Origin: a virus
Lineage: Duplodnaviria > Heunggongvirae > Uroviricota > Caudoviricetes
Virus record (IMG/VR): IMGVR_UViG_2703719347_000003
Length of the DNA: 8,708 nt
Direction: 5' to 3' (one strand)
Of the stretch, positions 1-8,408 are shown in pieces (the stretch's first letter is position 1; each line of letters starts with the position of its first letter). A program made the position numbers and the translations under genes. The notes under the pieces were generated by a model. It made no database searches. It was given only the letters and a program-made list of their open reading frames with translations, and was not told the DNA's origin.

Positions 1-321
1 GATGAAACAATGGCAATTTACACAGGCGTAGCGCCAGAAGGCAAAACGCTGGGGGCTGATAAAAATGGTAATCCTGCATGGATTGATATCCCGCCACTCT
101 CCGCTGAACAACAGATTATTCAGGCTGAACAGAAAAGAACGGTATTGCGTTCAATGGCTGATAAGGAAATAGTCTGGAGACAGGATGCTTTTGATGCGGA
201 AATCGCGACGGCAGAAGAAACCGCCGCGTTGTCTGAATGGAAAAAATATCGGGTCTTACTGATGCGCGTTGATACATCAAATCCCGTCTGGCCTACGCCT
301 CCGGGGGAGCAGGCCAATTGA
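1..321 (+). CDS. Tail fibre assembly protein (chaperone), 5'-truncated by the window edge; copy in the currently expressed orientation
   Basis: Frame is open from nt 1 (gat gaa aca atg...), so the gene probably starts upstream. The C-terminus ...EWKKYRVLLMRVDTSNPVWPTPPGEQAN carries the conserved Tfa-family motif (RVD-TS-x-WP-x-PP). Stop TGA at 319-321. Confidence 0.75.
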   Translation, partial: DETMAIYTGVAPEGKTLGADKNGNPAWIDIPPLSAEQQIIQAEQKRTVLRSMADKEIVWRQDAFDAEIATAEETAALSEWKKYRVLLMRVDTSNPVWPTPPGEQAN

Positions 322-913
322 TATCCGGCGCGGTGCTGGTATCAGTTGCCGTCACCGCGTCAATGTAATCCAGCACGACGTTAAGCCGGGTGGTTTCTGT
401 CTGCGTCAGTTTTCGCCCGGCCTGCAATTTCAGTTGAATCAGATTAATGGAAGCCATTGCAGTATCAATCAGTGACTGTCGCTGTGTTTCTGCCGCGCCT
501 ACTGCGGCGCTATGCTGTGCCTCAGTATCTGTCACCCATTTCTCACCATCCCATTCATCGTATGGCGTTAACGGGGCGACAGTGGTTGTGTTTTCAGGGT
601 AATCCCCCGGAGTGGTGATTTCTGCTGCCTCACGGGTTTCTGTGTTATAGACTGTCTCACCCCGATGGTCCGGCACGTACTCCCACGCGGTCAGGTCGGC
701 TGTGCGGCAAATTGCATAACCAGCCCGCCTTTCCCCGGGGGCATCAGTGCATGAATGTGCAGGAAGGCCAACGCCCACAGCCAGATATTCGGTTGACGTG
801 CAAAGGTATTCCCGCGTCTTATTATCGTAGCTGTGGACAACAACCTCTCCTGCAACTGTTGCCAGCCGCGATTCATTCAGCACCGCTGTAGTCATGGTTT
901 TCTTGCTCATCAT
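293..913 (-). CDS. Tail fibre assembly protein, alternative copy (Tfa') inside the invertible segment
   Basis: 206-aa ORF whose C-terminus ...LDYIDAVTATDTSTAPDINWPAPPEA matches the Tfa-family C-terminal motif. Its ATG (913-911) overlaps the TGA stop (912-910) of the upstream tail-fibre segment as ATGA, implying translational coupling. Confidence 0.8.
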   Translation of the reverse strand: MMSKKTMTTAVLNESRLATVAGEVVVHSYDNKTREYLCTSTEYLAVGVGLPAHSCTDAPGERRAGYAICRTADLTAWEYVPDHRGETVYNTETREAAEITTPGDYPENTTTVAPLTPYDEWDGEKWVTDTEAQHSAAVGAAETQRQSLIDTAMASINLIQLKLQAGRKLTQTETTRLNVVLDYIDAVTATDTSTAPDINWPAPPEA

Positions 914-1425
914 GCAGCCCTTACGATGTAGTTAAATGCAATGTTACGTGGCCTTGCATAACCCAGATACTGAATCCCCCAGGCTCCCACTGGAACGGGG
1001 TTCCAGATATGTTCTGTAGGTATACTTTTCGCTCTGAGAATATCTGAATTGGTTTCAGTTTTATCCCATCCCAGCAGGGCAATGTCGTTTACCGAAAACT
1101 GCACCACGCTGTCGGGTGATATATTGGCTTCCTGAACCAGATAAGAGCCTTTTTGCCACGACAACAACGTCCGGCTACTGTCCACTCCGCGCCCGTCATC
1201 CCAGCCACGAATAAATTCACCACGTAAATCAGGCAATATATTTGTCGGGTAAGCCTTTGCCAGTTCCGGGTATTCTTCAGCAGAAAATGCCGCCCCGTTG
1301 CATTTCAGCCAGCCTGTTGGCAGTGTGGCTGAAGGCCACGGAACAGGCACACCAACGGGTAATGCAGAGCCTTCTCCCAAACCAACGTTTAAGAAAATGC
1401 AGAGATTACGGCTAACTGGCATCAT
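910..1425 (-). CDS. Alternative tail-fibre C-terminal (receptor-binding) segment, promoterless in this orientation; becomes the 3' end of the tail fibre gene after inversion
   Basis: 171-aa ORF followed by and coupled to its own Tfa'. The frame is open only up to a stop at 1437-1435, and the 5' end contains the crossover site, so the listed ATG is probably not a real start. This is typical of Sv'-type segments of Mu, P1 and e14. Confidence 0.7.
   Translation of the reverse strand: MMPVSRNLCIFLNVGLGEGSALPVGVPVPWPSATLPTGWLKCNGAAFSAEEYPELAKAYPTNILPDLRGEFIRGWDDGRGVDSSRTLLSWQKGSYLVQEANISPDSVVQFSVNDIALLGWDKTETNSDILRAKSIPTEHIWNPVPVGAWGIQYLGYARPRNIAFNYIVRAA
1372..1397. other. 26-bp crossover site for the DNA invertase (gix/hix/cix/pix-like): TTCTCCCAAACC-AA-CGTTTAAGAAAA
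   Basis: Imperfect palindrome of two 12-bp half-sites around a 2-bp AA core, with the AAACC/GGTTT-like inner arms recalled for Hin-family sites (hixL TTCTTGAAAACCAAGGTTTTTGATAA). It lies about 55 bp upstream of the invertase gene and inside the 5' end of the - strand tail-fibre segment, where it encodes IFLNVGLGE. Confidence 0.6.
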
Positions 1426-1452: not shown

Positions 1453-2046
1453 ATGCTTATTGGCTATGTCCGCGTATCAACAAATGACCAGAACACGGAA
1501 TTGCAGCGTAACGCGCTGGAGTGTGCAGGATGTGAGCTGATTTTTGAGGATAAAATCAGCGGCACGAAATCCGACCGACCGGGACTGAAAAAACTGCTCA
1601 GAACATTATCTGAGGGGGATGCACTGGTGGTCTGGAAGCTGGACAGGCTGGGGCGTAGTATGCGGCATCTGGTCATTCTGGTTGAGGAACTGCGCGAACG
1701 CGGCGTTAATTTTCGCAGCCTGACGGATGCTATTGATACCAGCACGCCGATGGGGCGTTTTTTCTTTCATGTGATGGGTGCCCTGGCTGAAATGGAGCGA
1801 GAACTCATTGTCGAGCGGACACGCGCCGGACTGGAAGCAGCCAGAGCCAAAGGTCGTATTGGTGGCAGACGACCGAAACTCACCGCGAGTGAGTGGGAAC
1901 AGGTCGGACGGTTGCTGGCTGCGGGGGAATCTCGTCAACGTGTGGCGCTGATTTTTGATATTGGCCTGTCCACGCTCTATAAAAAATTCCCCGTATCAAC
2001 GACAAAGAATAAATTGTGTCATCCCTTAGCCAACCGGGACAAATAG
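1453..2046 (+). CDS. Site-specific DNA invertase, serine recombinase of the Gin/Pin/Cin/Hin family
   Basis: 197-aa protein starting MLIGYVRVSTNDQ... with the catalytic-serine motif YVRVST, then ...VVWKLDRLGRS...GRFFFHVMGALAEMERELI...GRIGGRRPKLT and a C-terminal helix-turn-helix region. Near-collinear with Gin and Pin as I recall them. A purine-rich RBS-like stretch (AGGGGA, 1441-1446) precedes the ATG. Confidence 0.93.
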   Translation: MLIGYVRVSTNDQNTELQRNALECAGCELIFEDKISGTKSDRPGLKKLLRTLSEGDALVVWKLDRLGRSMRHLVILVEELRERGVNFRSLTDAIDTSTPMGRFFFHVMGALAEMERELIVERTRAGLEAARAKGRIGGRRPKLTASEWEQVGRLLAAGESRQRVALIFDIGLSTLYKKFPVSTTKNKLCHPLANRDK

Positions 2047-3883: not shown

Positions 3884-4159
3884 ATGAACAAAGAAAATGT
3901 GATTACCCTGGACAATCCGGTCAAACGTGGTGAGCAGGTTATCGAACAGGTCACGCTGATGAAACCCAGTGCCGGGACGCTGCGCGGTGTCAGTCTGGCA
4001 GCGGTCGCAAACTCCGAAGTCGATGCACTGATTAAGGTGTTGCCGCGCATGACGGCACCGATGCTGACCGAGCAGGAAGTCGCCGCACTGGAACTGCCTG
4101 ACCTTGTGGCGCTGGCCGGTAAGGTGGTCGGTTTTTTGTCGCCGAACTCGGTGCAGTGA
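3884..4159 (+). CDS. E: Tail assembly chaperone (P2 gpE family), zero-frame product
   Basis: 91-aa ORF between the tube and tape-measure genes, with the slippery heptamer T_TTT_TTG near its 3' end. Confidence 0.88.
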   Translation: MNKENVITLDNPVKRGEQVIEQVTLMKPSAGTLRGVSLAAVANSEVDALIKVLPRMTAPMLTEQEVAALELPDLVALAGKVVGFLSPNSVQ

Positions 4160-4311
4160 CGTTTCCGAAAAATCTCTCGGTCGATGACCTGATGGCGGAT
4201 GTGGCAGTGATATTTCACTGGCCGCCATCAGAACTGTATCCCATGAGCCTGACCGAACTCATCACATGGCGCGAAAAGGCGCTCCGGCGAAGCGGAAACA
4301 CGAATGAGTAA
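3884..4311 (+). CDS. E+E': Tail assembly chaperone E+E', made by programmed -1 ribosomal frameshift at 4132-4138
   Basis: After a -1 shift at T_TTT_TTG the -1 frame stays open to TAA at 4309-4311, giving 142 aa by my count (84 aa from E, then 58 aa ...FVAELGAVTFPKNLSVDDLMADV...WREKALRRSGNTNE). The stop overlaps the T start codon at 4304. Confidence 0.75.
4132..4138 (+). other. Slippery heptanucleotide T_TTT_TTG for the E/E+E' -1 frameshift
   Basis: A classic X_XXY_YYZ motif in the E zero frame (GGT TTT TTG), placed so that the -1 frame yields a long extension. Confidence 0.7.
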
Positions 4312-6765: not shown

Positions 6766-7245
6766 ATGATGCTCGCGTTAGGTATGTTTGTTTTTATGCG
6801 CCAGACGCTGCCACACCAGACCATGCAGCGTGAATCAGATTATCGCTGGCCGTCAAATTCCCGTATCGGTAAACGGGACGCTTTTCAGTTTCTCGGTGTG
6901 GGTGAGGAAAACATCACGCTTGCCGGTGTGCTTTATCCCGAACTGACCGGCGGCAAGCTGACGATGACCACGCTCAGGCTGATGGCAGAGGAGGGGCGGG
7001 CGTGGCCGTTGCTGGATGGCACCGGCATGATTTACGGCATGTATGTCATCAGCAAGGTGAGTGAAACAGGGAGTATTTTCTTTGCAGACGGCACACCCCG
7101 GAAAATTGATTTTACGCTGTCGCTCACCCGCGTTGATGAATCACTGGCCGCGCTTTATGGCGATATCGGTAAACAGGCGGAGTCGCTCATCGGTAAGGCC
7201 GGCAGTATGGCGACCAGATTCACAGGTATGACGGGGGCGGGATAA
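6766..7245 (+). CDS. U: Tail protein U (P2 gpU family; tail/baseplate assembly)
   Basis: 159-aa ORF with AAGGAGGTGA RBS at 6750-6759. Its stop overlaps the D start as TAATG. Confidence 0.88.
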   Translation: MMLALGMFVFMRQTLPHQTMQRESDYRWPSNSRIGKRDAFQFLGVGEENITLAGVLYPELTGGKLTMTTLRLMAEEGRAWPLLDGTGMIYGMYVISKVSETGSIFFADGTPRKIDFTLSLTRVDESLAALYGDIGKQAESLIGKAGSMATRFTGMTGAG

Positions 7246-8408
7246 TGCTGGATGCGCTGACATTTGATGCAGGCAGCACGCTGACGCCGGATTACATGCT
7301 GATGCTCGACAGCAGGGATATTACCGGCAATATCAGCGACCGTCTGATGAGTATGACCCTGACGGATAACCGGGGCTTTGAGGCTGACCAGCTTGATATT
7401 GAACTGAACGATGCCGACGGGCAGGTCGGGCTGCCGGTTCGTGGCGCTGTCCTGACGGTGTATATCGGCTGGAAAGGTTTTGCCCTGGTATGCAAAGGGA
7501 AATTTACCGTTGATGAGGTTGAACACCGGGGCGCGCCGGATGTGGTCACCATCCGCGCCCGGAGTGCAGATTTTCGCGGGACGCTCAATTCCCGCCGGGA
7601 AGGCTCCTGGCATGACACCACACTCGGTGCGATTGTTGAGGCGATAGCCTCCCGTAACAAGCTGGAGGCCAGTGTCGCTCCGTCACTGGCCGGAATAAAA
7701 ATTCCACACATCGACCAGTCGCAGGAGTCTGATGCGAAATTCCTGACCCGTCTTGCTGAACGCAACGGCGGTGAGGTGTCGGTAAAAATGGGAAAACTGT
7801 TGTTTCTTAAGGCGGGGCAGGGGGTGACGGCCAGCGGTAAAAAAATCCCGCAGATTACCATCACCCGCAGCGACGGCGACCGTCATCATTTTGCGATTGC
7901 TGACCGTGGAGCTTACACCGGCGTAACGGCAAAGTGGTTACACACCAAAGACCCGAAGCCGCAAAAGCAGAAGGTAAAACTGAAACGCAAAAAGAAAGAA
8001 AAACACCTGCGCGCACTGGAGCACCCGAAAGCGAAACCGGTCACGCAGAAGAAAGCGCCAAAAGTACCGGAAGCGCGCGAAGGTGAATACATGGCCGGTG
8101 AAGCTGACAACGTTTTTGCCCTGACTACGGTATATGCCACGAAAGCACAGGCCATGCGCGCCGCTCAGGCGAAGTGGGATAAACTGCAACGGGGCGTTGC
8201 GGAGTTCTCCATCAGCCTTGCCACTGGTCGTGCTGATATTTACACGGAAACACCGGTCAGAGTGTCAGGCTTTAAGCGCGTCATAGACGAGCAGGACTGG
8301 ACAATCACTAAGGTGACACATTTTCTGAATAATAGCGGCTTCACGACGTCCTTAGAGCTTGAGGTCAGGCTTTCTGATGTGGAGTACGAAACAGAAGATG
8401 ATGAGTAA
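7245..8408 (+). CDS. D: Tail protein D (P2 late control gene D family; probable baseplate hub)
   Basis: 387-aa ORF translationally coupled to U. Position and size match P2 D. Contains an internal lysine-rich segment (about 7947-8087). Confidence 0.9.
   Translation: MLDALTFDAGSTLTPDYMLMLDSRDITGNISDRLMSMTLTDNRGFEADQLDIELNDADGQVGLPVRGAVLTVYIGWKGFALVCKGKFTVDEVEHRGAPDVVTIRARSADFRGTLNSRREGSWHDTTLGAIVEAIASRNKLEASVAPSLAGIKIPHIDQSQESDAKFLTRLAERNGGEVSVKMGKLLFLKAGQGVTASGKKIPQITITRSDGDRHHFAIADRGAYTGVTAKWLHTKDPKPQKQKVKLKRKKKEKHLRALEHPKAKPVTQKKAPKVPEAREGEYMAGEADNVFALTTVYATKAQAMRAAQAKWDKLQRGVAEFSISLATGRADIYTETPVRVSGFKRVIDEQDWTITKVTHFLNNSGFTTSLELEVRLSDVEYETEDDE

Follow-up and report, generated by a model that had tools for sequence, protein, structure and literature searches.

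The 26 bp at positions 1372-1397 of the DNA analysed here, a stretch of 8708 nucleotides that we call the window, very probably form the invertase-proximal site of a two-site invertible tail-fibre segment of the Pin/Gin/Cin type in a P2-like prophage of E. coli. Phages Mu and P1 and the E. coli element e14 have for decades been known to possess tail-fibre switches of this sort, so that the finding, though correct, is ordinary: it is a textbook tail-fibre switch, already known, and adds nothing new on serine invertases. The family is defined by two 26-bp sites and a Fis-bound enhancer, which in Mu lies inside the invertase gene (PMC3798978 and references therein); the hix sites are also 26 bp long (PMC3798978). 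A literature search for crossover-site names as whole words returned no relevant match.

The site is of the pix type, as judged from its sequence, from a Mu/P1 matrix and from its identity to the e14 site, and is composed of an inner half-site TTCTCCCAAACC (1372-1383), a 2-bp core AA (1384-1385) and an outer half-site CGTTTAAGAAAA (1386-1397). The full 26-mer is TTCTCCCAAACCAACGTTTAAGAAAA, also written TTCTCCCAAACC-AA-CGTTTAAGAAAa... The original prediction of a 26-bp imperfect palindrome with a 2-bp core is borne out by the sequence, with 8 of the 12 arm positions complementary. Palindromy of this quality is not above chance, since 27 positions of the window reach at least 8 of 12, equally good or better, and it was rejected as evidence for a site. 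The likeness to known invertase sites, in contrast, is above chance. A half-site matrix derived from the annotated records of Mu gixL/R and P1 cixL/R only gave 22.7 bits for 1372-1397 and 1.1 bits for the runner-up position in the window, in keeping with the predicted Hin-family type; the best score obtained with the same matrix in 200 shuffled sequences was 15.0 bits. Alignment with known sites showed that the 26-mer fits the gix and cix half-sites and is identical at 25 of 26 positions to the e14 site TTCTCCCAAACCAACGTTTATGAAAA, which lies directly upstream of pinE (locus L005, 3606-3631) and is found exactly in the sister prophages L001-L003. The sole difference is the A at 1392, in a half-site position that is also variable among gix and cix half-sites. 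Next to the core the outer half-site reads CGTTT, whereas most family members have a G there (GGTTT); the active e14 site likewise has C. That 1372-1397 is a functionless palindrome arisen by chance might be argued from the 27 palindromes of similar quality, but the probability of this is practically negligible: the consensus score lies far above those of shuffled sequences, the position beside an invertase gene is the expected one, and, as described below, the partner occurs in relatives and both orientations are seen. We regard this explanation as refuted by the matrix score, the partner sites and the two orientations.

Left of the core, positions 1-1385 represent the right-hand 1385 bp of an invertible segment of 1953 bp, as recognized by identity to the segments of loci L012, L014, L016, L003 and L008; the other 570 bp or so of the segment and the partner site are situated to the left of position 1. 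The segment part in the window carries a silent, promoterless cassette for an alternative tail-fibre C-terminus with a tail-collar domain (910-1385, minus strand; Pfam Collar, E = 2.7e-14), its partner gene tfa' for a tail-fibre assembly chaperone (293-913, minus strand; Pfam Caudo_TAP, E = 7e-32; protein WP_024176421.1 in L001-L003), and the 3' part of the tfa gene that is paired with the currently expressed tip (1-321, plus strand; Pfam Caudo_TAP, E = 2e-26). The latter is truncated by the start of the window and contig; the full gene of 138 codons is present in L001 (6905-7321). The two tfa genes converge and share their last 29 bp (293-321), and the same 29-bp overlap is found between tfaP and tfaE of e14 (L005, 2518-2546).

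The cassette has been annotated as part of a 171-aa open reading frame (910-1425), which reads MMPVSRNLCIFLNVGLGEGSALPVG... and runs past the crossover point into DNA that does not belong to the segment, so that its ATG lies outside the segment. Read in this frame, the minus strand of the site does encode IFLNVGLGE, and the next in-frame upstream stop is the TAA at 1437-1435, just outside the site, both as predicted. The collar cassette is expressed only after inversion has fused it to the constant part of the tail-fibre gene H; it then provides the C-terminus of the 433-aa H protein seen in flipped genomes. Both sites are read in one codon phase, in which the TT core supplies bases 2-3 of a Leu codon on the left and of a Val codon on the right. 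The left site reads (c)TT CTC GCA TAC CTT GGT TTG GGA GAA (LLAYLGLGE) and the minus strand of the right site (a)TT TTC TTA AAC GTT GGT TTG GGA GAA (IFLNVGLGE), the common inner half-site encoding GLGE. Because of this shared codon phase, inversion swaps tips on the constant N-terminal 280 residues of H. Simulated inversion left H open with 433 aa, the junction being ...LLAYLGLGE/GSALPVG..., also written ...LLAYLGLGE/GSALPVGVPVPWPS..., and this product agrees with the annotated H proteins of flipped genomes. The recombinant junction hence keeps the fibre frame, and the proposal that the site codes for the border of constant and variable fibre parts holds as well, H being open across LGLGE in both orientations: the protein has 431 aa with a Gp53-like tip one way and 433 aa with the collar tip the other way. 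In the orientation of the window H ends in the Gp53-like tip and the collar tip is silent; the tfa genes change strand together with the segment.

No partner site is present within the window, where a 26-mer pattern search (up to 3 mismatches) and the matrix scan both gave 1372-1397 only. Contig LIVG01000006.1 (L017; assembly GCA_001420055.1) matches the window with 100% identity over its first 8708 nt, and as the match starts at position 1 of the contig, the left edge of the window is a contig end. The contig begins inside a tfa gene, within the invertible segment, and the partner is therefore missing. Another assembly that contains this element, L016, likewise ends close by, in gene H; the breaks in both assemblies may be due to repeated tfa and stf sequences or to a sequenced culture in which the orientations were mixed. 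Ten loci encode exactly the invertase of the window, and all except L017 reach further upstream. Each of these nine loci contains exactly two sites scoring above 8 bits. The first is in all nine the exact 26-mer of the window, 81 bp before the invertase ATG. The second is inverted and located inside the tail-fibre gene H, 1.90-1.95 kb upstream, so that the inverted upstream partner that had been predicted is found in these relatives, off the window itself. It reads TTCTCGCATACC-TT-GGTTTGGGAGAA in eight of the nine loci and is a one-base variant, TTCTCACATACC..., in L013. The cores, TT and AA, are the same dinucleotide in inverted sense in all nine, with 1902-1953 bp of segment between them. 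Core and inner half-site together make up a perfect 14-bp inverted repeat (TTGGTTTGGGAGAA / TTCTCCCAAACCAA), whereas the outer half-sites differ. The segments of L012, L014 and L016 are 100% identical to positions 1-1385 of the window. Since relatives with identical sequence carry the partner, we infer its presence in the source isolate too: it should lie in gene H as TTCTCGCATACCTTGGTTTGGGAGAA, starting some 580 bp before the first letter of the window.

Other loci with the same invertase, L009, L010, L011, L013 and L015, have different cassettes despite identical or near-identical sites; their segments of 1902-1942 bp are 67%, 86% or 95% identical to that of the window. These loci show that fibre tips and chaperone genes are often replaced between fixed sites.

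Natural isolates differ in the orientation of this segment, which is switched exactly at the two sites. In L002 and L003 one and the same prophage occupies the yegQ/trhP attachment site. Direct alignment of the two loci between the sites gives 24% identity, and alignment after inversion of L003 gives 99.7%, while the flanks are collinear, with both outer half-sites included; the two loci thus differ by an inversion between the 14-bp perfect inverted repeats. The Tfa proteins WP_024176421.1 and WP_025693575.1 are encoded on swapped strands; for the former this is the minus strand in L001 and L002 but the plus strand in L003, which is flipped. When the L003 segment is reverse-complemented, it matches positions 1-1385 of the window with 99.9% identity. 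Locus L008 has an identical invertase and identical sites, and its segment is 99.9% identical to that of the window in inverted sense. Recent inversion is indicated, because loci with the exact invertase and 26-mer show both orientations with 99.9-100% segment identity. In addition, the junctions expected from in-silico inversion of L001 were sought in complete E. coli genomes, and both were found to be contiguous there; in NZ_CP025842.1 they are matched with 99.5% and 97.7% identity at the predicted spacing of 1953 bp. The exchange is confined to the 14 bp common to both sites, i.e. core and inner half-site, which is the resolution limit of such comparisons. As predicted, then, natural flipped genomes (L003, L008 and NZ_CP025842.1) switch inside the sites. 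Inversion of the e14 segment and of P2-like prophage segments in EPEC has been demonstrated by sequencing and PCR (PMC4272514).

The invertase gene (1453-2046, plus strand) starts 55 bp after the crossover site and encodes a serine DNA invertase of the Pin/Gin/Cin/Hin family of 197 aa (Pfam Resolvase 4e-52, HTH_7 1e-12). The protein has a serine aligned to the invariant Ser9 of Gin, Cin and PinE, and a C-terminal HTH. Its identity is 85% with PinE, 76% with Gin and 78% with Cin; the best PDB matches are the DNA-invertase chains 3uj3 and 4m6f (E = 4e-93 and 1e-91). The reading frame is intact and the exact protein is found in 56 blocks of the assembly collection. Positions 1471-1542 are homologous to the recombinational enhancer of P1 cin, which the P1 record annotates at codons 7-30 of cin. 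This stretch is 80.6% identical to the P1 enhancer, as compared to 69% for the gene overall, and identical synonymous codons amount to 32% vs 15% (p = 0.08, which is suggestive but not significant). Because of this p value the assignment of 1471-1542 as an enhancer remains one that we infer from homology.

The invertase gene is interrupted after codon 11 by ISEc22, an element of the IS66 family, in 30 or more complete genomes of E. coli (e.g. L007, 5486-7906; NZ_CP023834.1). The insertion comes with a duplication of CAACAAATG and lies at the equivalent of about position 1486 of the window, inside the enhancer-equivalent stretch. The reading frame downstream of ISEc22 is devoid of residues M1-S9, including the catalytic serine, and is still annotated as 'recombinase family protein'. 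All these interrupted genomes have the orientation of the window, which would fit a locked switch; they may, however, be clonal.

Such frozen derivatives, in which the IS66-family element splits the gene at codon 11/12 and removes Ser9, raise the question of whether the locus in the window is itself a fossil: an invertible architecture with a switch that is stuck, either by loss of the partner or by inactivity of the variant site or of the invertase. The position of the partner outside the window, beyond the contig start, and the one-base difference (A1392) from the site of e14 and L001-L003 would fit this explanation as well. It is nevertheless quite improbable. The invertase reading frame is intact, with the exact protein recurring in the assembly collection as given above; the same invertase and 26-mer are found in both orientations with almost identical segments; and the position of A1392 varies among gix and cix half-sites too. 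An active two-site switch is therefore the preferred reading of the locus.

A further explanation is that the sequence has been kept only for coding the LGLGE junction and marks a boundary at which fibre modules are exchanged by homologous or illegitimate recombination, without being a substrate of the invertase. Phage HK97 has no invertase, and its side tail-fibre gene stf contains a quasi-site, TTCTCCCAAACCAAGGTTTGTGCGAG, scoring 17.1 bits at the same LGLGE/GSALPVG junction (...NLGLGE/GSALPVG...; L018, 2590-2615). The presence of TTCTCCCAAACCAAGGTTTGTGCGAG in this invertase-less phage means that an invertase-site-like sequence coincides with a widely shared fibre module boundary. Homology breakpoints also cluster at the site: megablast against phage records placed those with unrelated phages at 1371, 1385-1390 and 1386. 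What makes a purely coding role highly improbable is the outer half-site (1386-1397), which lies outside the expressed coding sequence yet scores 8.5 bits, against 2.9 in HK97. Moreover, an invertase gene begins 55 bp past the site, orientation isoforms switch exactly at the sites, and a 14-bp repeat is too short for efficient RecA-dependent inversion.

The leader between site and invertase gene had been proposed to contain a second, weaker half-site at 1430-1441, where GGTTTTTATTCA is found just 5' of a Shine-Dalgarno-like GGGG/GGAG. This part of the original prediction did not hold. The stretch ranks 48th of 8697 half-site positions with 2.8 bits, and its GGTTT is not conserved, the aligned sequences being TGCTTT in e14 and CGCTTT in Mu. 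We rejected 1430-1441 as a half-site; a half-site function is not supported and the likeness is best treated as coincidental. The terminator-like pattern at 1414-1443 that emerged from a pattern scan was also discarded as a structured element, the leaders of the window, e14 and Mu folding no better than shuffled sequence (z = 0.03-0.13). A sigma-70 consensus scan gave no promoter in 1250-2150. Between the site and the ATG, at 1416-1425, stands the sequence ATGGCATCAT, which e14 has without change and Mu in nearly the same form (ATGGCATGAT). Its minus strand provides the ATG used to call the silent cassette as a 171-aa protein, and its plus strand looks like an extended -10 element (TGn + CATCAT) and thus makes it a possible promoter of the invertase gene. 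It is conceivable, but in our opinion rather unlikely, that this element in the spacer is indeed the invertase promoter, that occupancy of the site autoregulates the invertase, and that co-resident prophages cross-regulate and cross-flip each other. If this were true, the near-identity to the e14 site would imply a cell-wide network of coupled host-range switches.

The window as a whole is the tail-gene region of a P2-like prophage. Downstream of the invertase it contains the genes for sheath, tube, E/E', tape measure, U, D and ogr; the first five reading frames were named by Pfam and the remaining genes by the RefSeq annotation of near-identical loci. Gene E (3884-4159) and an overlapping reading frame of the GpE family (4156-4311) are arranged like E/E' of P2, as is usual in this group of phages. 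In P2, E/E' is expressed via a programmed -1 frameshift. The late-control gene D is intact in the window (7245-8408). In the closest relative from a complete genome (L001, 14245-16100; NZ_CP150989.1) D is truncated and the IS21-family element ISEc12 is located directly downstream, so that this copy of the prophage is defective.

By analogy with the family (PMC3798978 and references therein), the switch would operate as follows. Invertase dimers would bind both 26-bp sites and synapse on an enhancer that is bound by Fis and located in the 5' part of the invertase gene, after which the catalytic serines would cleave all four strands with 2-bp staggered cuts at the AA/TT core and strand exchange would proceed by subunit rotation. 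Inversion joins the constant part of H either to the Gp53-like tip or to the collar tip of the minus-strand cassette (910-1385), each with its own Tfa gene, and the expected outcome is an alternating phage host range. The site confirms that virions of this P2-like prophage can carry either of two receptor-binding tips, which amounts to a host-range switch for bet hedging. It is wrong to treat the silent cassette as a "phage tail protein" of 171 aa in its own right, as annotation pipelines do. Furthermore, both orientations and swapped cassettes at the site are to be expected in assemblies and comparisons of such prophages.

Among known systems, the P segment of e14 with pinE is similar in its proximal site (25 of 26 positions, and exact in L001-L003), its invertase (85% identity) and its TT/AA cores. 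The gene order is also the same: constant part of stf, site, variable tip, tfa, convergent tfa' with the 29-bp overlap, silent tip, site and invertase. The inner half-site of e14, GGTTTGGGAGAA, is identical to the one described here, but the outer half-site in the fibre gene is CTCTCGAAAACC in e14 and TTCTCGCATACC in gene H. Other differences are the host element, which is here a complete P2-like myovirus prophage with the switch between H/G and FI, whereas e14 is a defective lambdoid element, and the C-terminal tail of the invertase, which is 13 residues longer than that of PinE. The G segment of Mu with gin shares the 26-bp site of two 12-bp half-sites and a 2-bp core, the location of the site at the constant/variable junction of the fibre gene, and an invertase (76% identity) encoded just outside the segment on the same side. 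Its core is TC/GA instead of TT/AA, its segment is 3 kb long instead of 1.95 kb, and its fibre tips are unrelated. The C segment of P1 with cin has the TT/AA cores, the same half-site consensus and an invertase of 78% identity. In P1, cin is transcribed toward a segment of 4.2 kb and cixL overlaps the 3' end of cin, whereas in the present locus the invertase gene follows the site and is directed away from the segment, an arrangement shared with Mu and e14. Finally, the P2-like prophages of EPEC E2348/69, which we liken to ours from their description, also use an invertase and inverted repeats to switch fibre C-termini, and both fibre variants were shown experimentally to coexist in cultures (PMC4272514). 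One of the EPEC loci is a three-repeat shufflon with four variants, whereas the loci described here have two sites only.
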